IMG/VR virus record: IMGVR_UViG_2541047854_000008
Strand: one strand, 5' to 3'
Length of the DNA: 13,548 nt
From: a virus
Lineage: Duplodnaviria > Heunggongvirae > Uroviricota > Caudoviricetes
Below the pieces are notes generated by a model. It was not told the DNA's origin, ran no database searches, and saw only the letters and a list, made by a program, of their open reading frames with translations. Below are positions 1-13,548 of this stretch, piece by piece. A program made the translations under genes and the position numbers. The first letter of the stretch is position 1. Each line of letters opens with the position of its first letter.

Positions 1-234
1 CACTGGCACGTGGAGAATAAGCTGCACTGGCGTCTGGACGTGGTAATGAATGAAGACGACTGCAAAATAAGAAGAGGAAATGCAGCAGAATTATTTTCAG
101 GGATACGGCACATCGCTATTAATATTTTGACTAATGATAAGGTATTCAAGGCAGGGTTAAGACGTAAGATGCAAAAAGCAGCCATGGAGAGAAACTATCT
201 GGCGTCAGTCCTTGCGGGGAACGGGCTTTCGTAA
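1..234 (+). mobile_element. 3'-terminal part of an IS transposase gene (ISAs1/H-repeat-like DDE transposase); the rest of the gene and IS lie upstream of the window
   Basis: Frame 1 is open from nt 1 ([43 protein letters not shown]...) to TAA at 232-234. The HWxxENxLHWxLDVxxxED..R..G motif is the conserved C-terminal signature of this transposase class (recalled, not searched). The IS terminal inverted repeat cannot be placed without the other end. Confidence 0.55.
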
Positions 235-567
235 TCTTGCCCTGCCTGCTCACCTCCTCCAGGCACTTCCACTACATGATGACCTGCTCGGTGCCACCGC
301 TCCTTTTCACTATGACGTTAACCTCCCCGTCCCAGGACACCATGCTTTTGTCTACATTCTACGCAAACGGCAACTTTTATAACCAGTGTAAAAATAACGT
401 GCCGCAATAGTCATACCTATTAATGGTAAAAAGCTGTCACAATTCATAAAAAACCTTAATATACGCCACCCTAAACATAACCAGCGTTAATGTAAGGTTT
501 TTGTGTGGACTGGCTTCTTGATGTTTTTGCTACCTGGCTCTACGGCTTAAAAGTAATCGCGATAACG

Positions 568-1173
568 TTAGCGGTCATCATGTTCATCAGCGGGCTGGAC
601 GATTTTTTTATTGATGTCGTCTACTGGGTACGCCGCATTAAACGCAAGTTGAGTGTTTATCGCCGCTATCAGTTCATCCAGCGCGGCTGCTTTGTTCATG
701 GCTTTGATGATATCCCGTTTCAGGAAATCAACATGTCGGTTTTCCAGTTCCGGAAAACGCCGCTGCACCGACAGGGGGATCCCGTCGAGAATACTGGCAA
801 TTTCACCTGCGATCCGCGACAGCACGAAAGTACAGAATGCGGTTTCCACCACTTCAGCGGAGTCTCTGGCATTTTTCAGCTCCTGTGCGTCGGCCTGCGC
901 ACGCGTAAGTCGATGGCGTTCGTACTCAATAGTCCCTGGCTGGAGATCTGTCTCGCTGGCCTGCCGCAGTTCTTCAACTTCCCGGCGCAGCTTTTCGTTC
1001 TCAATTTCAGCATCCCTTTCGGCATACCATCTTATAACGGCGGCAGAGTCATAAAGCACCTCATTACCCTTGCCACCGCCTCGCAGAACGGGCATTCCCT
1101 GTTCCTGCCAGTTCTGAATGGTACGGATACTCGCACCGAAAATGTCAGCCAGCTGCTTTTTGTTGACTTCCAT
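568..1173 (-). CDS. nohD: Terminase small subunit Nu1 homolog (DNA-packaging protein), C-terminally altered
   Basis: The 201-aa translation matches lambda Nu1 essentially residue for residue through aa 169 (MEVNKKQLADIFGASIRTIQNWQEQGMPVLRGGGKGNEVLYDSAAV...KAMNKAAALDELI), then continues with 32 unrelated residues to a TAA. ATG at 1171-1173 is preceded by GGAATGAACA, as in lambda. No large-subunit (A) gene follows. Confidence 0.9.
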   Translation of the reverse strand: MEVNKKQLADIFGASIRTIQNWQEQGMPVLRGGGKGNEVLYDSAAVIRWYAERDAEIENEKLRREVEELRQASETDLQPGTIEYERHRLTRAQADAQELKNARDSAEVVETAFCTFVLSRIAGEIASILDGIPLSVQRRFPELENRHVDFLKRDIIKAMNKAAALDELIAAINTQLAFNAAYPVDDINKKIVQPADEHDDR

Positions 1174-1400
1174 TGTTCATTCCACGGCCAAAAACAGAGA
1201 AAGGAAACGACAGAGGCCCAAAAGCTCGTTTTCAGCACCTGTCGTTTCCTTTCTTTTCAGGGGGTATTTTAAATAAAAACATTAAGTTACGACGAAGAAG
1301 AACGGAAATGCCTTAAACCGGAAAATTTTCATAAATAGCGAAAACCCGCGAGGTCGCCGCCCCGTAACCTGTCGGATCGCCGGAAAGGACCCGCAAAATG
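1174..1400 (-). other. cos site: cosN 12-nt cohesive-end sequence at 1351..1362 (AGGTCGCCGCCC on + strand, GGGCGGCGACCT on - strand), with cosB between cosN and the nohD start and cosQ-side sequence at 1363..~1400
   Basis: The - strand of 1260..1362 reads as the lambda left end (GGGCGGCGACCTCGCGGGTTTTCGCTATTTATGAAAATTTTCCGG...), and the - strand of 1363..1395 matches the lambda right end (...GGGTCCTTTCCGG[C]GATCCGACAGGTTACG). The cosN-to-Nu1 start spacing of about 178 bp is as in lambda. Confidence 0.8.
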
Positions 1401-1561
1401 ATAATAATTATCATCTACATGTCACAACGTGCATCTACGCCATCAAACCACGTCAAATAATCAATTATGACGCAGGTATCGTATTAATTGATCTGCATCA
1501 ACTTAACGTAAAAACAACTTCAGACAATACAAATCAGCGACACTGAATACGGGGCAACCTC

Positions 1562-1756
1562 ATGTCAACTAAGAACAGAACCCGCAGAACAACAACCCGC
1601 AACATCCGCTTTCCTAACCAAATGATTGAACAAATTAACATCGCTCTTGAGCAAAAAGGGTCTGGGAATTTCTCAGCCTGGGTCATTGAAGCCTGCCGTC
1701 GGAGACTAACGTCAGAAAAGAGAGCATATACATCAATCCAGAGTGATGATGAATAA
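1562..1756 (+). CDS. ylcI: DUF3950-family small prophage protein (YlcI-like, 64 aa), lambda right-end ORF
   Basis: ATG at 1562 to TAA at 1754-1756. The translation MSTKNRTRRTTTRNIRFPNQMIEQINIALEQKGSGNFSAWVIEACRRRLTSEKRAYTSI... matches the K-12 DLP12 YlcI sequence and the lambda right-end sequence as I remember them. Confidence 0.8.
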   Translation: MSTKNRTRRTTTRNIRFPNQMIEQINIALEQKGSGNFSAWVIEACRRRLTSEKRAYTSIQSDDE

Positions 1757-2115
1757 ACATCCCGGTTTCTTCCACCATCGCACCGGAAAAGCGACTATGA
1801 GGGTAACCCTGCGTCTGTCAGCACAGTAAAACCCGGTGTGCATCGTTTTTGATTATTCCCGCACACTCACGCAGAAGGAATTCCCCGTCGGGCTACGGTC
1901 ATGGTTAATGCGGGAATACGGCGACGATACAGCGCAGCTAAAAGGGTAATGGACAGAAAGAGCGGTTTATTTCATTCCACAGGATTCTGAGTGCCCCCCT
2001 CCTCCAATAGGCTGAGCATCCACCTATATAGTTTTAATTTTCATCAATCCATTTAACTATCGTTTAATTGTTGTCACATAGGATTCTGCCGTTTTTAACA
2101 ATGCAGGATAATAAG

Positions 2116-2409
2116 ATGAAAAAAATGTTGTTTTCTGCCGCTCTGGCAATGCTTATTACAGGATGTGCTCAACAGACGTTTACTGTTGGAAACAAACCGA
2201 CAGCAGTAACACCAAAGGAAACCATCACCCATCACTTCTTCGTTTCGGGAATTGGACAGGAGAAAACTGTTGATGCAGCCAAAATTTGTGGCGGCGCAGA
2301 AAATGTTGTTAAAACAGAAACCCAGCAAACATTCGTAAATGGATTGCTCGGTTTTATTACTTTAGGCATTTATACTCCGCTGGAAGCGCGTGTGTATTGC
2401 TCACAATAA
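2116..2409 (+). CDS. borD: Bor lipoprotein (serum-resistance lipoprotein homolog), 97 aa with lipobox LITGC
   Basis: The ORF track starts at a TTG (2068). The Bor-like protein begins at ATG 2116 (MKKMLFSAALAMLITGCAQQTFTV...), preceded by AGGA 8 nt upstream, with a signal peptide and lipobox cysteine. Near-identical to lambda Bor and convergent with Rz as in lambda. Confidence 0.9.
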   Translation: MKKMLFSAALAMLITGCAQQTFTVGNKPTAVTPKETITHHFFVSGIGQEKTVDAAKICGGAENVVKTETQQTFVNGLLGFITLGIYTPLEARVYCSQ

Positions 2410-2440
2410 TTGCATGAGTTGCCCATCGATATGGGCAGCT

Positions 2441-2902
2441 CTATCTGCACTGCTCATTAATATACTTCTGGGTTCCTTCCAGTTGTTTTTGCATAGTGAT
2501 CAGCCTCTCTCTGAGGGTGAAATAATCCCGTTCAGCGGTGTCTGCCAGTCGGGGGGAGGCTGCATTATCCACGCCGGAGGCGGTGGTGGCTTCACGCACT
2601 GACTGACAGACTGCTTTGATGTGCAACCGACGACGACCAGCGGCAACATCATCACGCAGAGCATCATTTTCAGCTTTCGCATTAGCTAACTCCTTCGTGT
2701 ATTTTTCATCCAGTGCAGCAACATCACGCTGGCGCATCTGCATGTCAGTAATTGCCGCGTTCGCCAGCTTCAGTTCTCTGGCATTTTTGTCGCGCTGGGC
2801 TTTGTAGGTAATGGCGTTATCACGGTAATGATTAACAGCCCATGACAGGCAGACGATGATGCAGATAACCAGAGCGGAGATAATCGCGGTTACTCTGTTC
2901 AT
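2441..2902 (-). CDS. rzpD: Rz inner-membrane spanin (i-spanin), 153 aa
   Basis: The translation from ATG 2900-2902 ([64 protein letters not shown]...) is near-identical to lambda Rz. The ATG overlaps the rrrD TGA (ATGA). The track's GTG start at 2914 is judged to be an upstream extension. Confidence 0.9.
2500..2682 (-). CDS. rzoD: Rz1 outer-membrane lipoprotein spanin (o-spanin), 60 aa, embedded in Rz in the +1 frame
   Basis: The translation [60 protein letters not shown] has a lipobox (VVGC) and proline-rich stretch and is near-identical to lambda Rz1. It lies wholly inside the Rz ORF. Confidence 0.85.
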
Positions 2903-3396
2903 TGCTGACCCCACAAACAGATTTCACGCTCAATCTCACGACGAGTCATGAGACCTTTCCATTGCTTACCGCCAGCATATGTCCAGCGACGTAGCTGATC
3001 ACATGCGCCTTTGATATCGCCCTGGTTTATTTTGCGAAGAAGCGTCGATGTTCTGAAATTGCCAGCGCCCACGTTGTAAACGAACGAGTAAAGAGCGCCG
3101 CGCGTTGTTTCCGGTATATCAACTTTTATGTACGGGTTAATTTGTCTGGCGACCGTGGCAAGGTCTTTATTCAGGAGGGCTTTGCATTCTGCTTTGGTAT
3201 ACGTTTTACCGAGCATGATGTCTTTTCCTGTATGCCCGTGACATACAGTCCATACACCAACAATATCTTTGTATGGTATGTAGCTGACACCTTCCAGACC
3301 ATCGTTACCACTTGGGCCAGTGATTAACACTGATGCTATAGCAATTGCTCCGCCACCAATAGCAGCAGCAACGGCTTTTCGTAATGATGGAGGCAT
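2899..3396 (-). CDS. rrrD: Phage lysozyme (endolysin, T4-lysozyme-like GH24) with N-terminal signal-anchor-release (SAR) segment, 165 aa
   Basis: The translation [75 protein letters not shown]... has a Gly/Ala-rich weakly hydrophobic N-terminus (SAR) followed by a lysozyme catalytic region, matching K-12 RrrD and phage-21 R-type endolysin. RBS GAGGTG upstream; the ATG overlaps the essD stop. Confidence 0.9.
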
Positions 3397-3611
3397 TATT
3401 CACCTCTCGCAGCCTTGCGCTTATCTTCTTTAATCTTGAAATAAAGGTTTGTCAGGTACGTCAGCAGGCCAAATACCAGGCTACCCAGCACACCTATTGC
3501 TGCCCACTGTGAGGGCGTGACTTTATCGAGCAGCTGTAAAAACCAGTAACCGGCACTACCTGCTGAGGTGCCATAGGCGACACCCGTTGTTAACTTATCC
3601 ATGGATTTCAT
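3396..3611 (-). CDS. essD: Phage 21 S-type pinholin with dual-start motif MKSM, 71 aa
   Basis: ATG at 3609-3611 is preceded by GAGGTGGGG. The protein [71 protein letters not shown] has two transmembrane segments and a charged C-terminus. Met1 and Met4 fit the holin/antiholin dual start. The track's TTG at 3656 is judged an extension. Confidence 0.85.
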
Positions 3612-3656
3612 AACCCCACCTCGCAGACAAAGCGGGTGTAAATTGAGGGAATACAA

Positions 3657-4199
3657 CGTATCGCAAAAAAGCAGAAACGTAACAGACTCGGAGTCAGTGA
3701 ATAACTCAGGTATTGAGTTATCAGCTAATATCGAGACTCAAAAAATGGAAAAACCAGCTCGACGGCGGGTTTAAGCTGTGTGACGAAGTAACCACTCTTA
3801 ACAGCATAACCAATTTTTTACGTACGTAAACCACTGAATGATATTTATGAGAATGCTACCGAGTGTTCAAAACACCACCACAAATATATAAGAAAACCTC
3901 AACAAATAACCAATAAATAATTTCCGGCGTTATTTTTAGTTGATTTAAATTAAACCACCGAATTATAGAACCCCCATAAATAACAGCCATTAATATAAAT
4001 TAGCTAATAGGTTTATTTTTGTTCAAATAAGAGCCATAAATAGGTTTCGATAGAAAAAGTTCAGATAAAAATAGAGATCTACTTCACAAATTAAATGAGA
4101 AACTAAAACTTACATCTTGAAATAATCACATTGATTAGATGAATATTTATCGCGCAGTGACATCATTTTTTAATAATAGTTCAAAAAAAAGGGCTCACG
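3657..4199 (+). promoter_or_regulatory. Long AT-rich upstream region of the porin gene, presumed nmpC promoter/regulatory region; exact promoter not assigned
   Basis: About 540 bp without a credible ORF, visibly AT-rich, directly upstream of the nmpC ATG. Contains the short direct repeat CCATAAATA at 3974-3982 and 4034-4042. Porin genes typically have extended upstream regulatory regions. Confidence 0.3.
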
Positions 4200-5282
4200 A
4201 TGAAAAAATTAACAGTGGCAATTTCTGCTGTAGCTGCATCAGTACTGATGGCGATGTCTGCTCAGGCAGCTGAAATTTATAATAAAGACAGTAACAAGCT
4301 GGATCTGTACGGGAAAGTTAATGCCAAGCACTACTTTTCCTCTAACGATGCAGATGATGGTGATACTACTTATGCCCGTCTTGGCTTCAAAGGTGAAACC
4401 CAAATCAACGATCAACTGACTGGTTTCGGTCAGTGGGAATATGAATTCAAAGGCAACCGCGCTGAATCTCAAGGTTCCTCCAAAGACAAAACCCGTCTTG
4501 CATTTGCAGGCCTGAAATTCGGTGACTACGGCTCAATCGATTACGGCCGTAACTACGGTGTAGCATACGACATCGGTGCGTGGACTGACGTTCTGCCAGA
4601 ATTCGGTGGCGATACCTGGACCCAAACAGATGTGTTCATGACTGGTCGCACCACTGGTGTTGCAACCTATCGTAACAACGACTTCTTTGGTCTGGTCGAT
4701 GGCCTGAACTTTGCTGCTCAGTATCAGGGTAAAAATGACCGCACTGACGTAACTGAAGCCAATGGTGATGGTTTCGGTTTCTCCACTACTTATGAGTATG
4801 AAGGATTCGGCGTGGGTGCAACCTATGCTAAATCAGATCGCACTGACGGTCAGGTCGCCTATGGTAAGAGCAAATTCAATGCCTCCGGCAAAAATGCGGA
4901 AGTATGGGCTGCAGGCCTGAAATATGATGCGAACAATATCTATCTGGCTACCACATATTCTGAAACTCAGAATATGACCGTTTTTGGTAATAACCATATT
5001 GCAAACAAAGCACAAAACTTTGAAGCAGTAGCACAATATCAGTTTGACTTCGGTCTGCGACCATCTGTTGCTTACCTTCAGTCAAAAGGTAAAGACCTTG
5101 GTGTTCATGGTGACCGAGACTTAGTCAAGTATGTCGATGTCGGTGCTACTTACTACTTTAATAAAAACATGTCCACTTTTGTTGATTACAAAATCAACTT
5201 AATTGACGATAGTAAGTTTACCAAAACAGCTGGTATTGATACCGACGACATCGTCGCTGTAGGTCTGGTGTATCAGTTCTAA
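4200..5282 (+). CDS. nmpC: Outer-membrane general porin of the OmpC/OmpF/PhoE family (NmpC/OmpD-like), 360 aa, intact
   Basis: Signal peptide [23 protein letters not shown] followed by AEIYNKD..., and it ends in the porin C-terminal motif ...VGLVYQF. Full length with no interruption. Oriented opposite to the flanking late genes. Confidence 0.9.
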
Positions 5283-5290
5283 TCTGATTA

Positions 5291-5330
5291 CGAAAAAGAT
5301 ATGTTGCGGGAGGCTTTGCCTCCCCAACAT
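5291..5330 (-). terminator. Stem-loop with T-tract on the - strand: candidate tR'-like intrinsic terminator; may also terminate convergent nmpC
   Basis: Imperfect inverted repeat ATGTTGCGGGAGGC / GCCTCCCCAACAT at 5301-5330. On the - strand the stem is followed by ATCTTTTT. It sits about 140-180 nt downstream of the Q stop and 10-20 nt after the nmpC stop. Confidence 0.4.
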
Positions 5331-5471
5331 ATAAGTGGCTCCCTCAAGCCACTTCCTTTAGAAGCACAACCTTGCTTCTAACTATATAAACCTTCTGTTA
5401 TATATTACCCTTTATTTTTGGGGGCGTCTCAACGCCCCATTTTTAATAATTTTTAGTAAACAATTGGCATA
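5331..5471 (-). promoter_or_regulatory. Region expected to carry the Q-dependent late promoter (pR') and Q-utilisation site; individual elements not resolved
   Basis: In lambdoid phages pR'/qut lie immediately downstream of Q (established knowledge). The region holds several short hairpins (AGAAGCA/TGCTTCT, AGTGGCT/AGCCACT, GGGGCG/CGCCCC) and no ORF. No confident -35/-10 assignment could be made by eye. Confidence 0.3.
5420..5445 (+). terminator. GC-rich hairpin GGGGCG-tctcaa-CGCCCC followed by ATTTTT on the + strand; terminator-like, function ambiguous
   Basis: Perfect 6-bp GC stem with a 6-nt loop and a T-run on the + strand. On the - strand it is followed by an A-run, so it is only terminator-like in the + direction (possible distal nmpC terminator) or is part of the late-promoter leader structure. 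Confidence 0.3.
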
Positions 5472-5855
5472 TTAATTAGAGTTATTAACAACGATATCCA
5501 TCTCTAACCGGATATCTAATGCCATTAACATCCCTTCAATTATGCCCTCAGCCTTCTGTAACCTTTTCCCGATATAACCATCAGAGCAGCAATGCTTACC
5601 TGCCAGTGACATGAATGTCATACCGACTACATAATAATCTACTAATAAATCGTGCAAATCGCTGTTGTTCTTTTTCAGACGGGCCATGCACCCGCAAATG
5701 ATCATCGCGTCATCGTCACAACATTGCGGGCGAGATTTTACTTTTGAAGGAATTAATCCCTTAAAACCGGCGGCAATGGACGACCAGGTCACATCTTCAT
5801 GATTATTAGCCGCCCACGCTCCCCAACGCTCAAGAACCATCTGAATATCACGCAT
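5472..5855 (-). CDS. quuD: Late-gene antiterminator Q homolog, 127 aa
   Basis: ATG at 5853-5855 with GGAG 9 nt upstream. The translation [60 protein letters not shown]... matches K-12 QuuD as recalled. The track's TTG at 5870 is judged an extension. Confidence 0.9.
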
Positions 5856-5940
5856 CAACTTACTCCACAAAAATCAGACCAGAACGCCAATTACAAGCAA
5901 AAATCAATAAAACAGTATTAGTTGATTGTTATCTCTGACT

Positions 5941-6081
5941 TCATACTCCTGCTCCTGTCAGGGTTTTGGCGTAATTCCTCAGTATTCGGTAATCGGTCAA
6001 AACAGAACCGGGGAAACGATATAAGCGCAGGCGCATCCAGCGGTGGCGAAGACGTTCTGCCATATAAGACTCAAACATCAT
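5941..6081 (-). CDS. ylcG: Small prophage protein YlcG-like, 46 aa; missing from the ORF track (under 60 aa)
   Basis: Hand translation of the - strand gives [46 protein letters not shown], with ATG at 6079-6081 overlapping the rusA TGA (ATGA) and stop at 5941-5943. Position between rusA and Q matches ylcG in DLP12. Confidence 0.7.
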
Positions 6082-6440
6082 TCATCTCCCAGTTCAGTGA
6101 TGGTCAGTTCCAGCTTCCCACCTTTGGTAACAGGCATCTTCACAACGCGGTAATCAACGACCAGCTCATCATCCAGCCAGAAACCTGCTTTAGTGAGTGC
6201 GTCAAAAGCGGCTTTTTGCAGATTATCCAGGTCACGGCGACGGCGATCCGGCATGTGGCACTCAATGCGGATTTTCACAGGCATAGCCAGGCCGATATCC
6301 AGCATTGCGTTTTTAATGATTCGGGCGACGTTATCGCGGTATGCCTGCCCCTCTGCGCTGACGTGCGTGCGCCCGCGATTATGGCGGTAATAGCGATTAT
6401 TGCTCGGAGGCCAGGGTAATGTGATGCTGTAGGTATTCAC
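6078..6440 (-). CDS. rusA: Holliday-junction resolvase RusA (crossover junction endodeoxyribonuclease), 120 aa
   Basis: The translation [91 protein letters not shown]... is recognisably RusA. Its start overlaps the ybcO stop. Confidence 0.95.
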
Positions 6441-6727
6441 GCCTTAATAACCCCCTCTTTCAGCCAGATAACCTGTGTTCTCGCCATACCTTCCAGCGCG
6501 CATTCTTTTGCATATGCAGCATCGACAAAATGTGTGCGGCGGTCGATTTCGTCGTGGCAGGCAGAACATGCAATGGTGGCAATCAGGTCTGGCGGTTTGG
6601 TACCGGTGCCGCACAATCCAGTCAGCCGGATATGTGCCAGTACAGACGTTTCAGGGTTGCCATTACATACGCCAGGGATTCTTACCTGGCATTCCCGACC
6701 ACGCGCTGCTTTTCTCAAATCAGCCAT
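6437..6727 (-). CDS. ybcO: DUF1364-family nin-region protein (YbcO-like), 96 aa, cysteine-rich putative nuclease/zinc-binding protein
   Basis: ATG at 6725-6727 preceded by GGAGG. The translation [66 protein letters not shown]... matches K-12 YbcO as recalled. The track's TTG at 6766 is an extension. Confidence 0.85.
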
Positions 6728-6890
6728 GATTCCTCCTTGCTGCCAGTCGCAACCATTTTTTATCAACCAGGCTGGCGGTATATCCGAGCAGTGTTGGTAT
6801 TTCGGATGGTTTCAGCTCAGGCTTACGCTTACGACGATTTGGTACTCTGTAGATGTGTCCGTTCATGACACGAATAAGCGGTGTAGCCAT
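6720..6890 (-). CDS. ninE: NinE-like small protein, 56 aa; missing from the ORF track (under 60 aa)
   Basis: Hand translation gives [56 protein letters not shown], recognisably lambda NinE. The ATG at 6888-6890 overlaps the ybcN TAA by 1 nt, and the stop at 6720-6722 overlaps the ybcO start region by 8 nt. Confidence 0.8.
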   Translation of the reverse strand: MATPLIRVMNGHIYRVPNRRKRKPELKPSEIPTLLGYTASLVDKKWLRLAARRNHG

Positions 6891-7345
6891 TACGCCTCCT
6901 GCTTGTCGCGCAGCAGCTGGAACTCGCAGCTCTGCGGAATAGTCAGGTGGCAGCCAATATTCATCGCCCAGGCTTCAACCTTACACAGGAAGACATACAT
7001 CTCTCCGGTATCAAGATTGGAGGTATGACGTAATGACTGAATGGTGGTGATTTCACCGGTTACGACATCAACCAGTTCTTTGGTTTCATAACCGAGATAA
7101 GTGTGTTTGAGAGCATCTTTTACCCAAGCTGGAGTGGCGAACGTTTTACCCCTGCTGATGAGGTATTCACTGATTTCGCTGTACCACATGTGGCTGAGTG
7201 CATTCTGGGAAAGACTGCGTCTCTCGCGCCACGGTTTAAGCACCATGCGAAAGCATTTGCCGTCCTCCAGATAAGGCTGGATCTGCCGACCGATAGCGGT
7301 GAAGTTACCGCGATGCAATTTGATACCATCTTGTGGGAGGTTCAC
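6890..7345 (-). CDS. ybcN: NinB/Orf-family recombination protein (YbcN-like), 151 aa, GTG start
   Basis: The translation [62 protein letters not shown]... matches K-12 YbcN as recalled. GTG at 7343-7345 is preceded by GGAGGTGAAGC. Confidence 0.85.
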
Positions 7346-7443
7346 GCTTCACCTCCGCAGAGATCAAACGCTGGATGCAAAATATCGCAGGTGCATTTCT
7401 GCATCTGTGAATGGAGAAGAGAGGTTGGATTGTATGTGCGCAT
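7342..7443 (-). CDS. Possible small ORF (33 aa) translationally coupled to ybcN; may be the K-12 ylcH equivalent. Speculative
   Basis: ATG at 7441-7443 to TGA at 7342-7344, giving [33 protein letters not shown]. The stop overlaps the ybcN GTG (GTGA). No recognisable RBS or homolog; the call rests on position only. Confidence 0.25.
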
Positions 7444-7465
7444 AAACGTCCCCGTTTAGCGCAGA

Positions 7466-7496
7466 AGTCACCGGAGGAGTTCAAACTCCGGTGACT
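7466..7496 (-). terminator. Perfect 11-bp stem-loop (AGTCACCGGAG - 9-nt loop - CTCCGGTGACT) downstream of the HNH-motif gene; possible terminator or regulatory hairpin
   Basis: Inverted repeat read directly from the sequence. It lies between the stop of the 260-aa gene (7538) and the nin-gene block. There is no clear U-tract on the - strand and TTAATTAT follows on the + strand, so terminator function is uncertain. Confidence 0.3.
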
Positions 7497-7537
7497 TAAT
7501 TATGGCAAGTTGATTGTTGAAAATCAATTTAGTGGAT

Positions 7538-8320
7538 TTAGGCGCAATACAAAGGATCATTAGCAGCTCTAATACCGCCCTGAATCGCAAGCCCTGTATG
7601 GCAATTTGACATTGAGCATGATTGCCATCTGTGCAAGGGACCTCCATTAATCGAAACTTCCAGCAGATCTTTATCTCCTTTCATCCTGACCCCTTCATAC
7701 AACATATCAAGACGCTCAACAATCAATCCTGTTGGAGGTTCCATTTTTAGAACGAGGGCAAACTCTCCTGGCCCACGTCGTATTGTTATACGCGGGCCGG
7801 TACACTCCACATCCCAATTGTCTGATTTAGCTTTCCATTCATTTTCATCTATCAGTAAAGTCTCCTTACCAATAGAATTACAGAAAATTCCTGATAAAAG
7901 CATCGGTCCATGTGGTATGGGTGAAGGTTTCACAGAAAGAATGGGTTGTTCGTTGACTACAATCAAATTTTGACAGTTATGAAACGTCACTCCTGCAAAT
8001 TTTACTGTTATAGGCTCATTATGAAAATCAAACATTTCATTTGCAAAACCAGCCTGTAAGCACTTGGGATTTCTGTCAGCTATTTCCACTGTCTGTGCTG
8101 AAAGTCTACCACGAGCTCTTTTTTGATTGCATTGGGAGCAAAGAAGTGTCATTCCATTCGGATCATGTATTTTGGCATCAACGAAGTCAGGTTTAAAATG
8201 CTCATAATCATAAAATCCAAATCCACAAATTACACAGCCAAAGCCGCACCTTTGCCTTATCTGACGTTTTATTGTCTCAGGTATTCTTCTTGAGAGCCCG
8301 TGTTTATTAATATTGTCCAT
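7538..8320 (-). CDS. Hypothetical 260-aa protein with an N-terminal zinc-finger HNH (beta-beta-alpha-Me) nuclease motif and an uncharacterised ~190-aa C-terminal domain
   Basis: ATG at 8318-8320 with an in-frame stop 5 codons upstream and only a weak SD. Residues 25-65 read RCGFGCVICGFGFYDYEHFKPDFVDAKIHDPNGMTLLCSQCNQ, i.e. C-x3-C-x2-C ... EH ... N ... C-x2-C-N, the spacing typical of HNH nucleases. The C-terminal region is not recognised. The gene is AT-rich relative to the lambda-like core. Confidence 0.6.
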   Translation of the reverse strand: MDNINKHGLSRRIPETIKRQIRQRCGFGCVICGFGFYDYEHFKPDFVDAKIHDPNGMTLLCSQCNQKRARGRLSAQTVEIADRNPKCLQAGFANEMFDFHNEPITVKFAGVTFHNCQNLIVVNEQPILSVKPSPIPHGPMLLSGIFCNSIGKETLLIDENEWKAKSDNWDVECTGPRITIRRGPGEFALVLKMEPPTGLIVERLDMLYEGVRMKGDKDLLEVSINGGPLHRWQSCSMSNCHTGLAIQGGIRAANDPLYCA

Positions 8321-8450
8321 ATGGTTAGTACGCTATAAGTTTGTTTCTATAATTTTACCACAATAGATAAGTTTGTATCAGAAATCGCTATATGGAGTGA
8401 GCGGAATATTTATATTATTCATGCAATTGCTCTCCCGTACGCAGCCCGCA

Positions 8451-8476
8451 CTTCCGTCATCGCAGAATGACGGAAG
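8451..8476 (-). promoter_or_regulatory. Perfect 10-bp inverted repeat (CTTCCGTCAT-cgcaga-ATGACGGAAG) in the intergenic region between the 107-aa and 260-aa genes; candidate operator or attenuator hairpin
   Basis: Read directly from the sequence. It lies 19 nt past the stop of the 107-aa ORF and upstream of an AT-rich stretch that contains an extended -10-like TGGTAAAAT (- strand, about 8350-8360). No U-tract follows on either strand. Confidence 0.3.
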
Positions 8477-8494
8477 CCTTACTAACTAGCGCCT

Positions 8495-8818
8495 TTATTG
8501 AAACAGATTCTGAGGTAAATGCGGCAATACTTGACTCCACTTATCATCCTGCCACGGCTGAAGTTTTACATGTGCCGTTTCTCGGGCGAGGATTGCTCGC
8601 GCTCTGTTGAGTCTCTGGGGATATTCTTGCTCGATGGAAGTGAAGTGACCAGCCTCACCATGCTCCGCATCCTGAAGAAGATGAGTAACGTTCTGGTAGG
8701 CAATTAACATCACATTCCCTGCTCGCCATAACCAGGCGAGTGTGCAAAGTTCGTTATCAGTGAATTGTTTTGTGATTGGGAATTGTTGAACTGCTAGAAC
8801 GGGAACGCCAGCATCCAT
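8495..8818 (-). CDS. Hypothetical protein, 107 aa, no recognised family; upstream partner of the HNH-motif gene
   Basis: ATG at 8816-8818 with an in-frame TAG 3 codons upstream and AGGGA 8 nt upstream. Translation MDAGVPVLAVQQFPITKQFTDNELCTLAWLWRAGNVMLIAYQNVTHLLQDAEHGEAGHFTSIEQEYPQRLNRARAILARETAHVKLQPWQDDKWSQVLPHLPQNLFQ. Coding status rests on ORF length and position only. Confidence 0.45.
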   Translation of the reverse strand: MDAGVPVLAVQQFPITKQFTDNELCTLAWLWRAGNVMLIAYQNVTHLLQDAEHGEAGHFTSIEQEYPQRLNRARAILARETAHVKLQPWQDDKWSQVLPHLPQNLFQ

Positions 8819-8929
8819 TGGCAGTCCCTATAGTAAAACCATAGCTCAGGACGCTTCGTTCAGGATAGATACTTTTATTGTACTTACCTAACTTTCTTAC
8901 TATAGCACGGTTGGAAAAGTGATTATTAC

Positions 8930-10456
8930 TCAAAAATAAACCTCACCATCAACCATATATTTGAGAGTACTTATCGCCTGCTGGGCGGATATTGTTTTCA
9001 TTAAAGGATAGTGTTTAAAAACAATGCCATTCATAAAATAGATATCACAGGTTTTATTATCTGTATTGATTATGATTTTTTCGAATGTTTTATAGGCAAG
9101 TGTACGACATAGCTCTCGCCCATTTTTACTGGTTAAGTCAATAGCATGAAAATCACCAAGTGAACTCACCGCTTTACTCTTCAAAGTTTTTAATGATACC
9201 GAAGCCCTTCGTAATTCTTTATCTAATACTCTGATTTTTTCTGCTATAGCGGTAACTTCAGGCGCAACAGATAATGCAGCAATTAAATTATTAATTTTCA
9301 TCTGGAGCTCAATAATTTTCAACTCTAAAGTTTCATTAGCATCTTTCTTGTTTTCAACTGGTTGGATTTTACTACAATTAAAAAGCAACTCATTAATGAT
9401 ATTATAATCAACCAAATCTCTCTTTATTGATGGCCTGTCACATCGATGCAGTCTTCTCATCGGACAAACATAATAGCCATGCAAACTTCCAGATACCGCA
9501 TGAACAATCATGGTATTACCACAAGCCTCGCACTTCATAACTGTTCGAAGTAGATTTATCAACATAGGATTTTTGCTACTATTGCTAATACCAAAAGGTG
9601 CCAACCGAATTTCCTGCACAGCGTAAAACAAATCATCTGATATGACTCTGGGATAATAGCCAGCGATTTCACTTATTCCTTTACCTCTTGCACGATATGA
9701 AGGTACGCATATACCTATCAGAGCTTTATTCGCTAATAATTTTTCAATTACAGAAGGCCCCCATGCACTTTCTTTGCCTGAGAAATTTTTTACAGCATGA
9801 TCATTTAAATACTTGGCTATTGCATTCAATGATCGCCTTTCCATCCTGAGTTTAAAAATTAGCTCAATCGTTTTCACCCTGTCGGGGTCTGGAATAAAAG
9901 CTGTTCTTTTGTCATCCAATGAGAGCCATCTCGGACAAGACGCCGTCATAATCGTGCCTGACTCCAGTGCATCCTGCCGTTTTTTCTTCCATGATAATTT
10001 AACCCGACTTGACTTTATCTCGCTTTCTTCATTTGCCCTTTGTGCTATAAGTATGGCTTTTATTAATGAATATGGATCATTCAAAGAGTCAATATTATAG
10101 ACTGTATTATCGCAAAGAGTTATAACATCAATACCGTGATTCAAAATCAATTTCAGACGCTCAATCGCTTCACCGACTTTTTCTCTTGAAAGTCTGTCCA
10201 AACTTTCAACTAACAATGTAGTTCCTGGCAATATATAACCATGCTCTATAGCATCTAAAAATTCCGAAAAAGCTCCTGATTGTGCATGCTTTCCTTTGAA
10301 TGCACTTAATCCTAAATCTTCATATGTTATGGTATCAAGATAATAATCACTATTTACCTTTAACCATTCAGCAATAAGTCTTCTCTGTCGGTTCAATGAG
10401 TCGCCAGACATCTGACCTGGTGATGAAAATCGCATATATGCTATGGCTTTTTTCAT
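8930..10456 (-). CDS. ybcK: Large serine recombinase (resolvase/invertase-type N-terminal catalytic domain plus recombinase and zinc-ribbon domains), 508 aa
   Basis: ATG at 10454-10456. The N-terminus MKKAIAYMRFSSPGQMSGDSLNRQRRLIAEW... carries the serine-recombinase catalytic motif (YxRxSS). The C-terminal part has a Cys cluster (CEACGN...CPMRRLHRC) and a coiled-coil-like segment. Matches K-12 YbcK in length and sequence as recalled. AT-rich. Confidence 0.9.
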   Translation of the reverse strand: MKKAIAYMRFSSPGQMSGDSLNRQRRLIAEWLKVNSDYYLDTITYEDLGLSAFKGKHAQSGAFSEFLDAIEHGYILPGTTLLVESLDRLSREKVGEAIERLKLILNHGIDVITLCDNTVYNIDSLNDPYSLIKAILIAQRANEESEIKSSRVKLSWKKKRQDALESGTIMTASCPRWLSLDDKRTAFIPDPDRVKTIELIFKLRMERRSLNAIAKYLNDHAVKNFSGKESAWGPSVIEKLLANKALIGICVPSYRARGKGISEIAGYYPRVISDDLFYAVQEIRLAPFGISNSSKNPMLINLLRTVMKCEACGNTMIVHAVSGSLHGYYVCPMRRLHRCDRPSIKRDLVDYNIINELLFNCSKIQPVENKKDANETLELKIIELQMKINNLIAALSVAPEVTAIAEKIRVLDKELRRASVSLKTLKSKAVSSLGDFHAIDLTSKNGRELCRTLAYKTFEKIIINTDNKTCDIYFMNGIVFKHYPLMKTISAQQAISTLKYMVDGEVYF

Positions 10457-10638
10457 GGTGACACCTGCTAACGTATGCTTTTATAAACCTTAGTGGTGGG
10501 ATATAACTTTTGTTTAATTTTTATTTAAAAAGACAATTAAGGTCACATTATCTTGAATATACAACAATAATCGTATTGCAATTTTCTCACGCCATAATCT
10601 TGAAAGCACAAAAGAATACATAAAAAATAAAGACATTA

Positions 10639-10680
10639 ACAAAAAGCATAAAACGAGGCTCATATAAATATAAGAGCCTC
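10639..10680 (-). terminator. Intrinsic terminator downstream of emrE
   Basis: Hairpin GAGGCTC...GAGCCTC (10654-10679) is followed on the - strand by GTTTTATGCTTTTT, about 32 nt after the emrE stop. Confidence 0.5.
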
Positions 10681-10711
10681 CATATTTTAGTCGTTTAAAA
10701 ACAAATTATTT

Positions 10712-11044
10712 TTAATGTGGTGTGCTTCGTGACAATAAATTAATAACCAACACACCGGCACAAATCAACATCATGCCTATAATGGCTGGCAGGTCCAGCC
10801 GTTGGCCGAAAAATCCCCATGACAGTAAGCTAATCAGGACAATACCGACTCCTGACCAGATAGCATAAGCAATCCCTGTAGGAATATAAGCCAGCGTCTG
10901 AGCTAATAACCAGAATGATGCACAATAACAAATAATTGTACCAACAGATGGCCATAACCGTGTAAAACCTTCTGAAAACTTCATTAAGGTTGTACCAATG
11001 ACCTCTGCAAGTATTGCACCACCAAGATAAATATAAGGGTTCAT
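10712..11044 (-). CDS. emrE: Small multidrug resistance (SMR) efflux transporter EmrE, 110 aa
   Basis: ATG at 11042-11044. The translation MNPYIYLGGAILAEVIGTTLMKFSEGFTRLWPSVGTIICYCASFWLLAQTLAYIPTGIAYAIWSGVGIVLISLLSWGFFGQRLDLPAIIGMMLICAGVL..NLLSRSTPH is recognisably EmrE (four TM helices, conserved Glu14). The track's TTG at 11098 is an extension. Confidence 0.95.
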   Translation of the reverse strand: MNPYIYLGGAILAEVIGTTLMKFSEGFTRLWPSVGTIICYCASFWLLAQTLAYIPTGIAYAIWSGVGIVLISLLSWGFFGQRLDLPAIIGMMLICAGVLVINLLSRSTPH

Positions 11045-11060
11045 AGCATATTCTTTCCTG

Positions 11061-11093
11061 TTCAAACTGGAGAGAATTGTACTACAGTTTGAA
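11061..11093 (-). promoter_or_regulatory. 9-bp perfect inverted repeat (TTCAAACTG - 15 nt - CAGTTTGAA) immediately upstream of emrE; possible operator or transcript-processing hairpin
   Basis: Read directly from the sequence, between the ren stop (11112) and the emrE start (11044). Function unknown. Confidence 0.2.
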
Positions 11094-11111
11094 ATCAACT
11101 CACCTGTTTCA

Positions 11112-11414
11112 TCATTGTGTACCCATTGATGTTCTTTTATATACCCTCAATACGCGTTTCATCGCGGCACTCTGGCGACACTCCTTAAAAATCAGATTCG
11201 TGCTCACCTTTCCTTCCCGTTCTTCTCTGGTAGCGAACCGGTAATACACCGTTCGCCAGACCTTACCATCAACGACCAGGATTCCTGCCCGCGCCATTTT
11301 AGCCGCAGCCTGATTTATGCTGGTTACGGTTGCGCCTGTTACCGCGGCAACGTCCTGTGCACAGAAGCTCTTATGCGTCCCCAGGTAATGAATAATTGCC
11401 TCTTTGCCCGTCAT
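11112..11414 (-). CDS. renD: Ren protein homolog (lambda Ren, protects against Rex exclusion), 100 aa
   Basis: The translation MTGKEAIIHYLGTHKSFCAQDVAAVTGATVTSINQAAAKMARAGILVVDGKVWRTVYYRFATREEREGKVSTNLIFKECRQSAAMKRVL... is recognisably lambda Ren. The ATG overlaps the P stop (ATGA), as in lambda. Confidence 0.85.
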   Translation of the reverse strand: MTGKEAIIHYLGTHKSFCAQDVAAVTGATVTSINQAAAKMARAGILVVDGKVWRTVYYRFATREEREGKVSTNLIFKECRQSAAMKRVLRVYKRTSMGTQ

Positions 11415-12112
11415 ACACTTGCTCCTTTCAGTCCGAACTTAGCTTTAATTTCTGCGATCTTCGCCAGAGCCTGTGCACGATTTAGAGGTCTACCGCCCAT
11501 AACAGGAAGTTGTTTTACTGGTTCAGGTATCGTCTCACCACGGTTAATTCGCGCTGTCATACAGGTCAGTTCATCGGCAGCCTTGCGCCGTAATTCCGCG
11601 TCAGTCAGCGCATTGGCCCGCATGTTCTGGTACAAGTTGGTAACCAACCAGTAATGCGCGTTCGATTTCCACGGATAAGACTCTGCATCCGGATACAGGC
11701 CACGCTTCCGGCAATACTCGTAAACCATATCAACCAGCTCGCTGACGTTTGGCAGCCCGGCGTTAACAGATGCTTCTTCCCGGCACCAGGCGACAAACTG
11801 CCCGGGTGATGGCAGGAATGGTCGATTCTGCCGACGGGCTACGCGCATTCCAGCGTTAACCTGTTCCATTGTGGTGATCCCGTTTTCCCGGAAAGCCAGA
11901 ACCCACTGGCGGCGGATTTCGTTCAGTTCATTCTGGTCACGGTTAGCCAGGCTCGCCGGGAAAGTTGCCAGTAACTGGCTGAACACACCGTTGATGATCT
12001 GCGCTACCTGCTGTACCTGTGGCTTTTCGTCGTACTGTTCCGGCATGTTGTTGGCGATCCGGCGCATCTGCTCACAGTCAAAGTTAACCATCTGTGCGGC
12101 GATGTTTTTCAT
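11411..12112 (-). CDS. P: Replication protein P (DnaB helicase loader) homolog, 233 aa, apparently full length
   Basis: The translation MKNIAAQMVNFDCEQMRRIANNMPEQYDEKPQVQQVAQIINGVFSQLLATFPASLANRDQNELNEIRRQWVLAFRENGITTMEQVNAGMRVARRQNRPFLPSPGQFVAWCREEASV... is near-identical to lambda P as recalled. The start ATG overlaps the stop of the upstream O-frame remnant (ATGA), as in lambda. Confidence 0.9.
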   Translation of the reverse strand: MKNIAAQMVNFDCEQMRRIANNMPEQYDEKPQVQQVAQIINGVFSQLLATFPASLANRDQNELNEIRRQWVLAFRENGITTMEQVNAGMRVARRQNRPFLPSPGQFVAWCREEASVNAGLPNVSELVDMVYEYCRKRGLYPDAESYPWKSNAHYWLVTNLYQNMRANALTDAELRRKAADELTCMTARINRGETIPEPVKQLPVMGGRPLNRAQALAKIAEIKAKFGLKGASV

Positions 12113-12288
12113 AGCTCCACCCCGTAAATCCAGTCAGTGTTCGTCAGGTCGAGTTTTGGTTTGCCGGCTATCACGCCAGCCTGTTGCTTGTTTCGGTTGA
12201 TTTCGAGCTGGGTCCACTTGTCGCGGAGTTTGGCCGGACTTAGCACGTTACAGGCAACACGTAAAGATCCAACCAAGCCAAAATCTCC
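12109..12288 (-). pseudogene. O: 3'-terminal remnant of replication initiator gene O (only the last several tens of codons); no start codon, so the ori-containing part of O is absent
   Basis: The - strand frame ending in TGA at 12109-12111 encodes ...AGVIAGKPKLDLTNTDWIYGVEL, which matches my recollection of the lambda O C-terminus, and has the lambda-like O/P ATGA overlap. The frame is closed by an in-frame stop at 12289-12291 and there is no N-terminal part. The exact junction with int-upstream sequence is not determined. Confidence 0.45.
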
Positions 12289-12384
12289 TTACCTCACAAC
12301 ACGGCAAGCCTGCATTGCGGCGCTTCAGTCTCCGCTGCATACTGTCCAGGTGAGCGCGGGTGATGGCATAACAGAGGAAAGAAA

Positions 12385-13548
12385 ATGTCACTCTTCCGCA
12401 GAAATGAAATATGGTATGCCTCGTATTCGCTCCCGGGCGGGAAACGAATTAAGGAATCTCTTGGCACAAAGGACAAGCGGCAAGCTCAGGAGTTGCACGA
12501 CAAGCGAAAAGCAGAACTCTGGCGAGTAGAAAAGCTAGGGGATTTACCTGATGTCACTTTTGAAGAGGCCTGCCTAAGATGGCTTGAGGAAAAAGCTGAT
12601 AAAAAATCTCTCGATTCAGATAAAAGCCGGATTGAGTTCTGGCTTGAACATTTTGAGGGTATAAGGCTTAAAGATATCTCGGAGGCAAAGATTTACTCTG
12701 CTGTAAGCAGAATGCATAACAGAAAGACGAAAGAAATATGGAAACAGAAAGTTCAGGCCGCCATCAGGAAAGGTAAAGAACCGCCTGTTTATGAACCAAA
12801 GCCAGTATCAACTCAGACAAAGGCAAAGCATCTTGCCATGATAAAGGCCATTCTCCGTGCTGCAGAACGCGACTGGAAGTGGCTGGAAAAAGCGCCTGTC
12901 ATCAAGATACCAGCGGTCAGAAACAAGCGAGTCAGATGGCTGGAAAAGGAGGAAGCAAAACGCCTTATTGATGAGTGCCCCGAACCACTGAAATCTGTCG
13001 TCAAGTTTGCGCTGGCAACTGGTCTGAGAAAGTCGAACATCATAAATCTGGAATGGCAACAAATCGACATGCAGCGACGAGTTGCCTGGGTGAATCCAGA
13101 AGAGAGCAAATCAAACCGCGCCATTGGTGTGGCGCTGAACGATACCGCCTGTAAAGTGTTGCGTGATCAAATAGGCAAGCATCACAAATGGGTGTTTGTA
13201 CATACCAAGGCGGCTAAGCGAGCAGATGGAACATCAACGCCTGCGGTCAGGAAGATGCGCATCGACAGCAAGACATCATGGCTATCAGCTTGTCGTCGTG
13301 CAGGAATTGAAGATTTCCGTTTCCATGACCTCAGACACACCTGGGCAAGCTGGCTGATTCAGTCAGGCGTCCCATTATCAGTGCTTCAGGAAATGGGCGG
13401 ATGGGAGTCCATAGAAATGGTTCGTAGGTATGCTCACCTTGCGCCTAATCATTTGACAGAGCATGCGAGGAAAATAGACGACATTTTTGGTGATAATGTC
13501 CCAAATATGTCCCACTCTGGAATTATGGAGGATATAAAGAAGGCGTAA
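12385..13548 (+). CDS. intD: Tyrosine site-specific integrase (phage integrase family), 387 aa
   Basis: ATG at 12385 preceded by GAGGAAAG. The C-terminal catalytic region has the R...HxxR...Y signature ([15 protein letters not shown]...VRRYAHL). Length and sequence match K-12 IntD as recalled. The stop codon is the last 3 nt of the window, so the attachment site or tRNA is outside the window. Confidence 0.9.

Follow-up and report, generated by a model that had tools for sequence, protein, structure and literature searches.

We analysed a 13,548-nucleotide (nt) stretch of viral DNA, IMG/VR record IMGVR_UViG_2541047854_000008 (the window), which carries a phage lambda-type cohesive-end site (cos) next to a gene for a homologue of the small terminase subunit Nu1. 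The window is a lambdoid cryptic prophage in reverse orientation, and its cos region is the cos–nohD segment of DLP12, the cryptic prophage integrated at argU in Escherichia coli. It very probably represents a rare lineage in which a single deletion of ~11.7 kb at a TA microhomology joined codon 169 of nohD to the 5′ end of nfrB, with the cos left behind as a relic. This is a rare deletion variant of a known structure, DLP12 cos and a functional nu1 having already been published. Cos sites and Nu1 remnants are textbook features of DLP12/Qin-type prophages and occur in most E. coli genomes, and their documented role is that of recombination partners for incoming lambdoid phages; the locus itself matters little.

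Identity of the element and the deletion joint

The window was placed using its list of open reading frames (ORFs) and megablast, with 5,426 complete E. coli genomes as the database. Positions 1–10247 are 100% identical to E. coli FORC_082, whose annotation for this region reads, from right to left, tRNA-Arg, intD, replication-gene remnants, ybcK, ybcN, ninE, ybcO, rusA, ylcG, quuD, a porin gene, essD, rrrD, rzpD, iss/bor, ylcI and a “terminase small subunit”. The DLP12 prophage of K-12 MG1655 is collinear with the window at 97–99.8% identity. Across the cos region, positions 663–1773 share 96.9% identity with lambda and 97.8% with K-12 DLP12, a likeness due to homology and not to chance.

Integration at argU with intD, gene order and sequence all agree with DLP12. 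The likeness to K-12 extends through the order quuD, nmpC, essD-rrrD-rzpD, bor, ylcI, cos and nohD (b0560 in K-12), and in both prophages the cos has a Nu1 homologue next to it and no functional large terminase subunit (TerL). The two differ beyond that point, where K-12 retains a full-length NohD (181 amino acids), a 300-nt A′ remnant of the large-subunit gene, tail-fibre remnants, appY, ompT and attR, all of which are deleted here. The window also lacks ybcV, ybcW, ybcL and ybcM, and its nmpC-type porin gene is intact.

A three-way alignment of the window with the nfrB and nohD sides of K-12 places the deletion joint at 667–668, a TA common to nohD (lambda nt 696–697) and nfrB. To its left, on the plus strand, an nfrB remnant at 363–668 comprises the upstream region (363–504) and the first 164 nt of the gene (505–668), and is 100% identical by blastn to K-12 (NC_000913 593320..593015). 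Relative to K-12, about 11.7 kb is missing (NC_000913 about 581,340–593,015), containing the nohD 3′ end, aaaD, tfaD, ybcY, tfaX, appY, ompT, attR, envY, ybcH, nfrA and most of nfrB. The attachment repeats of DLP12 are correspondingly incomplete: K-12 has two copies of the 47-bp argU-derived repeat that marks attL and attR, FORC_082 only one. With attR lost, the integrase can no longer excise the prophage, which in this lineage can never leave the chromosome. The nohD::nfrB joint was found in 4 of the 5,426 complete genomes, at the same chromosomal place each time; this rarity and fixed position indicate vertical inheritance. An insertion sequence (IS)-mediated deletion was considered and set aside, as the nearest IS end (ISAs1, window ≤362) lies 305 bp from the joint and no IS was present at any joint examined. 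The loss of ompT, appY, envY and nfrAB presumably leaves an OmpT-negative strain that is resistant to phage N4, whose adsorption genes are gone. E. coli B also lacks the ompT–nfrB region, via different rearrangements.

The cos site, the Nu1 fusion and packaging in trans

The initial annotation of the window had placed cosN at 1351–1362 within flanks nearly identical to those of lambda, and every cos subsite is indeed present there, all on the minus strand. The 12-nt cohesive end GGGCGGCGACCT (1351–1362) was located by exact match and by alignment to lambda, as was the cosQ heptamer GGGTCCT (1386–1392), the packaging-termination subsite (PMC4669245), which stands at the lambda distance from cosN. 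The I2 spacer between cosN and cosB (1314–1350) is of exact length and identical to lambda bp 13–49. Alignment with lambda and K-12 places cosB at 1195–1313, consisting of R3 (1298–1313), the I1 region with its IHF site, an inverted R2 (core 1243–1249) and R1 (core 1203–1209), with both cores exact relative to lambda. The flanks of cosN match lambda fully from bp −16 to +53.

Unlike lambda, the site has one G-to-A change in R3 at window 1309 (lambda bp 54), an R2–R1 spacer that is 1 bp shorter and a few flank substitutions, all of them common to Escherichia phage PhiR42_1. R3 spans bp 50–65, with the small terminase subunit (TerS) contacting bp 55–63 and bp 56, 58 and 59 being critical (PMC9026076). 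The bp 54 change, the only one in an R site, therefore falls outside the contact bases and away from the critical positions. The cos of the K-12 Qin prophage carries the same bp 54 variant. In addition, a heavily reduced prophage retaining int, xis, recT, Rz, cos, nu1′::lom′, stf and tfa has the variant cohesive end GGGCGGAAGGCG, which differs from lambda in the right half of cosN.

From 667 to 1416, a segment spanning cosQ, cosN, I2, the whole of cosB and nu1 codons 1–169, the window has exactly the sequence of PhiR42_1 (PV340562), whose deposited genome is complete and carries nu1, A, W and B intact. Our literature search found no paper describing PhiR42_1 or the PhiR phages. Recombinants between lambda and DLP12 that carry the K-12 DLP12 nu1 are viable, with crossovers clustering at cos, and cutting of cos in both partners was proposed to stimulate the exchange (De Paepe et al., PMC3945230). 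Since the cos here has the PhiR42_1 sequence, bp 54 lies outside the TerS contacts and lambda recombinants function with the K-12 DLP12 allele, a lambda-type terminase would likely cut this site in trans. Lambda-type cos sites are present in 4,591 of the 5,426 complete E. coli genomes; retention of cos is therefore the rule rather than an adaptation.

Next to cos, the nohD′ fusion ORF (568–1173, minus strand) encodes 201 amino acids and is annotated as a terminase small subunit (WP_000453608.1). Positions 667–1173 encode Nu1 residues 1–169, and positions 568–666 a 32-residue tail and stop codon derived from antisense nfrB. Comparison of the translations confirmed the divergence after residue 169 that had been noted previously: the protein follows lambda Nu1 through I169 (...ALDELI) with three differences (K48R, A75T and L131I), and the last 12 residues of lambda Nu1, PGLLSEYIEQSG, are replaced by 32 unrelated ones. 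Residues 1–169 are identical to PhiR42_1 Nu1. The full Pfam Phage_Nu1 profile (PF07471) was matched, positions 1–164 of 164 (E = 3e-101), in keeping with the earlier statement that the N-terminal cosB-binding region is kept; both the winged helix-turn-helix at the N-terminus and the central oligomerisation region are retained. Two further features expected of a small terminase subunit are missing: its C-terminal TerL-binding end is not intact, and no cognate TerL gene lies downstream. In a tblastn search of the window with 23 lambda terminase, head and tail proteins, Nu1 was the sole match and gpA gave none, which agrees with the reported absence of the large terminase and of head and tail genes. 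The annotation had also proposed that the altered region is the one contacting the large subunit. This holds in that the extreme C-terminus, within the TerL-binding region, has been replaced, but the new tail is a by-product of the deletion and not an evolved variant, since it arises by read-through into antisense nfrB across the joint.

The further suggestion that a lambda-like helper could package the element in trans divides in the same way: cutting of cos in trans is plausible, given the PhiR42_1 identity and the K-12 recombinants, whereas spread in the manner of a cosmid or a phage-inducible chromosomal island (PICI) is not supported, with attR gone, no second cos within about 55 kb on either side in FORC_082 and no PICI hallmarks. 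The most likely consequence of helper infection is recombination with the incoming phage, with at most a dead-end packaging from one cos; we do not expect the element to be transferred as a unit. A terminase of lambda specificity from a superinfecting phage could probably still bind and nick the relic cos. Two outcomes are then realistic: either a double-strand break promotes homologous exchange of the prophage with the infecting phage, as documented for DLP12, or the neighbouring chromosome (nfrB′, ISAs1, rhs/vgrG, cus and ent) is packaged to a dead end. In lambda the cosB/Nu1 end enters the head first, so packaging would proceed toward lower window coordinates. From cosN, the path would run through nohD′, nfrB′, the ISAs1/Rhs/VgrG insertion, cusSRCFBA, pheP and the ent/fep cluster. 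A single cos is expected to give only defective particles with one cohesive end (“doc” particles).

Completion of packaging by cos terminases requires a second cos (PMC6687093, PMC4669245), and in FORC_082 there is no second cosN within ~58 kb downstream or ~55 kb upstream. Packaging as a cosmid takes two co-oriented cos sites 38–51 kb apart or a concatemer-forming replicon, and the FORC_082 flanks provide neither. Chromosomal DNA between two cos sites was packaged in the dilysogen assays of the Feiss laboratory (PMC4669245). Helper packaging of passive prophages and the formation of lambda doc particles likewise depend on terminase acting in trans on a chromosomal cos; the passive prophages, however, have a downstream cos at genome distance, whereas a single cos is found here. 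FORC_082 was also examined for a co-resident helper. Apart from DLP12, it has a single nu1 locus, a Qin remnant with gene A truncated at 936 nt; without an intact lambda-type TerL in this genome, the terminase must come from a superinfecting phage.

That the defective element keeps a functional cos in order to be packaged and transferred by a lambda-type helper, as cosmids and cos-type PICIs are, is therefore a reading we consider highly improbable. It would be consistent with an intact cos identical to that of a deposited phage, with a length from argU to the joint of roughly 15 kb (about one-third of the lambda genome, a PICI-like size) and with the mobilisation of cos-bearing islands and plasmids by lambda and phi80 (PMC6092414). 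Like the cos-type PICI EcCICFT073 and cosmids, which depend on helper terminase and capsids, the element has a lambda-like cosQ and cosN. PICIs, however, come with an att and int of their own, with a replicon, alpA and Rpp, and without lysis genes; they excise and replicate to concatemers, and none of this applies here. Excision by Int is precluded by the deletion of attR, and the integrase and attachment site are of the prophage type. The gene for replication protein P is frameshifted in FORC_082, the closest complete genome, and another ~1 kb of the O/P region is absent from the window. Genes that PICIs lack (essD, rrrD, rzpD, quuD, rusA and nin genes) are annotated in the identical region, and no PICI-type genes (alpA, pri-rep or rpp) appear among its annotations, although no dedicated hidden Markov model search for Rpp was made. 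E. coli cos-type PICIs have a cosB different from that of their helper and depend on Rpp (PMC6739421), while the cosB here is lambda's own. Cosmids, for their part, replicate and form multimers that supply two cos sites, in contrast to the single chromosomal cos within about ±55 kb seen here. The occurrence of the joint at one place in so few genomes also points to vertical inheritance rather than transfer.

Several points weigh against reading the cos as the relic of a single deletion in a DLP12 lineage. The right part of the window departs from each of the four complete genomes that carry the junction, and the search for helpers, for a second or distant cos and for a resident TerL covered FORC_082 rather than the window's exact host. 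The best of these junction genomes, B-JRPT-4119, covers window 9800–13548 only as two pieces spanning ~1 kb more. The viability of PhiR42_1 is taken from its GenBank record, and cleavage of this particular cos allele is a prediction from its sequence. The expectation of doc particles is background from the classical lambda literature.

A recurrent breakpoint in nu1

The position at which nohD was broken is shared with many other prophages. We regard lambda nt 697/698 (CTGATA|CC) as a real, one-sided deletion hot spot. No paper on it was found in our literature search; as far as we found it was previously unremarked, and it is the one aspect of this locus that could reward further study.

The same TA (lambda nt 696–697, CTGATA|) was used in the window, in the DLP12 prophages of E. 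coli B and C and in strain WP4-S18-ESBL-08, with nfrB, a J fragment and an stf fragment as the respective partners. The B and C prophages resemble the window in having a cos beside a Nu1 with a foreign C-terminus produced by late-gene deletion (nu1::J′), and their cos region is 100% identical over window 1174–1420; they differ in the partner, the J fragment being found in 65 genomes. In K-12, Qin NohA (...PGLLSEY|NRAD...) also keeps a cos next to a Nu1 fusion made by late-gene deletion, although here an stf fragment is joined at the next TA, lambda nt 718/719. In contrast to the B, C and Qin fusions, the partner in the window is a chromosomal gene outside the prophage, hence the additional loss of attR.

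When NohD′ was used as a protein query, 120 cluster representatives were obtained, 75 of which contain the ...NKAAALDELI motif. Divergence occurs exactly after I169 in 45 of these 75, with more than 20 unrelated tails, and after P170 in 6 more; overall, Nu1(1–169) has been fused independently to more than 20 different downstream sequences at the breakpoint. The tails include sequence upstream of U, internal Lom, Tfa, FI, integrase, portal, capsid E, stf and chromosomal ydfJ. All tails that could be mapped to lambda (49/49) are co-oriented with nu1, and the events are therefore deletions only. At the DNA level, six joints in unrelated prophages show CTGATA| followed directly by the partner, with cos kept upstream. 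Of 15 clean cases, 12 have a partner site ending in TA, a dinucleotide whose frequency is 0.045 (P = 3e-14).

For a less biased census, 128 IMG/VR contigs were walked from lambda nt 572 to 2600 (2 kb). Six of ~25 breakpoints fell at nt 697–699, each with a different partner (Poisson P = 3e-12), and of five truncated matches sampled from complete genomes, four stop at the hot-spot position. The effect is one-sided, with a foreign right neighbour in 7 of 119 contigs and a foreign left neighbour in 0 of 138 (Fisher P = 0.004). Further breakpoints occur at nt 694–696, 716–720 (K-12 NohA), 734 and 880, with others scattered through gene A. The nt 880 position, also in gene A (CTTTCA|), is shared by two contigs whose partners differ, and it may represent a second, weaker hot spot.

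We searched the breakpoint for a recognisable signal, judging similarities by eye. Its likeness to the right half-site of cosN (7/12 matches) is at the chance level, being expected by chance at more than 1,000 lambda positions. The likenesses to Chi (6/8) and to the IS1 inverted repeat (8 of the first 10) are unconvincing and were found after many tries, and those to the lambda att core, the phiX174/pC194 nick motifs, an EcoBI site (with the spacer off by one) and the invertase hix/gix half-sites are similarly post hoc and unconvincing. A local hairpin does not appear to be responsible, as the minimum free energy fold of lambda nt 641–760 shows nothing distinctive at nt 697. The HE-PICI integrase clade that targets prophage late genes was also considered; its targets are capsid, protease and portal genes, with nu1 unmentioned.

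Two explanations of the altered Nu1 C-terminus bear on these data. In the first, Nu1(1–169) with a foreign tail is a selected decoy that binds cosB or co-assembles with an invader's TerS, recruits TerL poorly and so interferes with lambda-like phages in the manner of Rpp or Ppi. The intact DNA-binding and oligomerisation regions (Pfam 1–164), the kept cos and late-transcription context, and the recurrence of the fusions in many prophages would all fit such a role, as would the loss of the last 12 residues from the TerL-binding C-terminus, given the poor TerL binding of TerS without its last 30 residues (PMC9026076). The tails, however, are arbitrary and often out-of-frame pieces of whatever lay downstream, and recurrence fixed to one nucleotide with TA microhomology suggests a hot spot of mutation rather than selection acting on the protein. 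K-12, moreover, has a full-length NohD, and lambda both grows on K-12 and can use K-12 nohD. We consider selection for a decoy improbable.

The second explanation, which we judge to be evenly balanced, is that a site-specific polar break or stall occurs at lambda nt 697/698, after which the left 3′ end (...CTGATA) is kept and joined through the 2-nt TA microhomology to variable downstream sites. Repeated stripping of late genes would then leave cos and Nu1(1–169). This complements the single-deletion history of the DLP12 lineage and does not replace it. A break of this kind would account for the 45 of 75 representatives that diverge after I169 and for the DNA joints in unrelated prophages, as well as for the truncated complete-genome matches and the excess of census breakpoints at this position. 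The TA-ended partners, the co-orientation of every mapped tail and the one-sidedness also speak for it. On the other side, no enzyme or sequence signal was identified, the cosN, Chi, IS1-end and lambda att likenesses being weak and obtained after many comparisons, and other breakpoints exist. Database entries are redundant, proteins were listed in order of their similarity to the query, and selection against leftward deletions could add to the one-sidedness.

More tentatively, the site in nu1 could be one of site-specific, polar breakage or of replication run-off, produced by the phage terminase or by a nickase encoded by the host or a satellite at the conserved nu1–A junction. Repeated late-gene deletion there, with ends joined at TA microhomology, would yield “grounded” prophages with lysis genes, cos and Nu1(1–169), the window being one such product in which the deletion ran into the chromosome; we view this specific version as possible but doubtful. 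Should the hot spot prove to be mechanistic, there would be an explanation for the common end point, to the base, of so many E. coli prophage remnants, and a handle on prophage domestication.

Other features of the window

Within the prophage, YbcK (8930–10456, minus strand) is a complete large serine recombinase with Resolvase, Recombinase and Zn-ribbon domains. Serine recombinases cross over at a 2-bp core, and YbcK was weighed as a possible source of the TA joints; no link between it and the joints was found. In FORC_082, an IS1 replaces 698 bp of ybcK/emrE (window 10247–10945). Both FORC_082 and B-JRPT-4119 contain ~1 kb of extra O/P replication region relative to the window, near ~12250.

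The DLP12 porin gene (4200–5282; nmpC type, annotated ompC) is intact here, whereas it is split by IS5 in K-12 and by IS1 in BLR(DE3). At 7528–8920, a 1.4-kb module replaces K-12 ybcL-ybcM. It encodes a 260-amino-acid protein with no Pfam match (7538–8320, minus strand) and a 107-amino-acid protein annotated as a P22AR C-terminal domain protein (8495–8818).

Outside the prophage, positions 1–362 (plus strand) contain the 3′ end of an ISAs1-family transposase gene together with an IS end, as indicated by the ORF at 10–234 and the RefSeq annotation of the identical FORC_082 region; K-12 homology begins only at 363. This is the edge of a cluster of VgrG, PAAR and Rhs fragments with the ISAs1-family element at its end, which sits between cusS and nfrB. 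In FORC_082, cusS is frameshifted.

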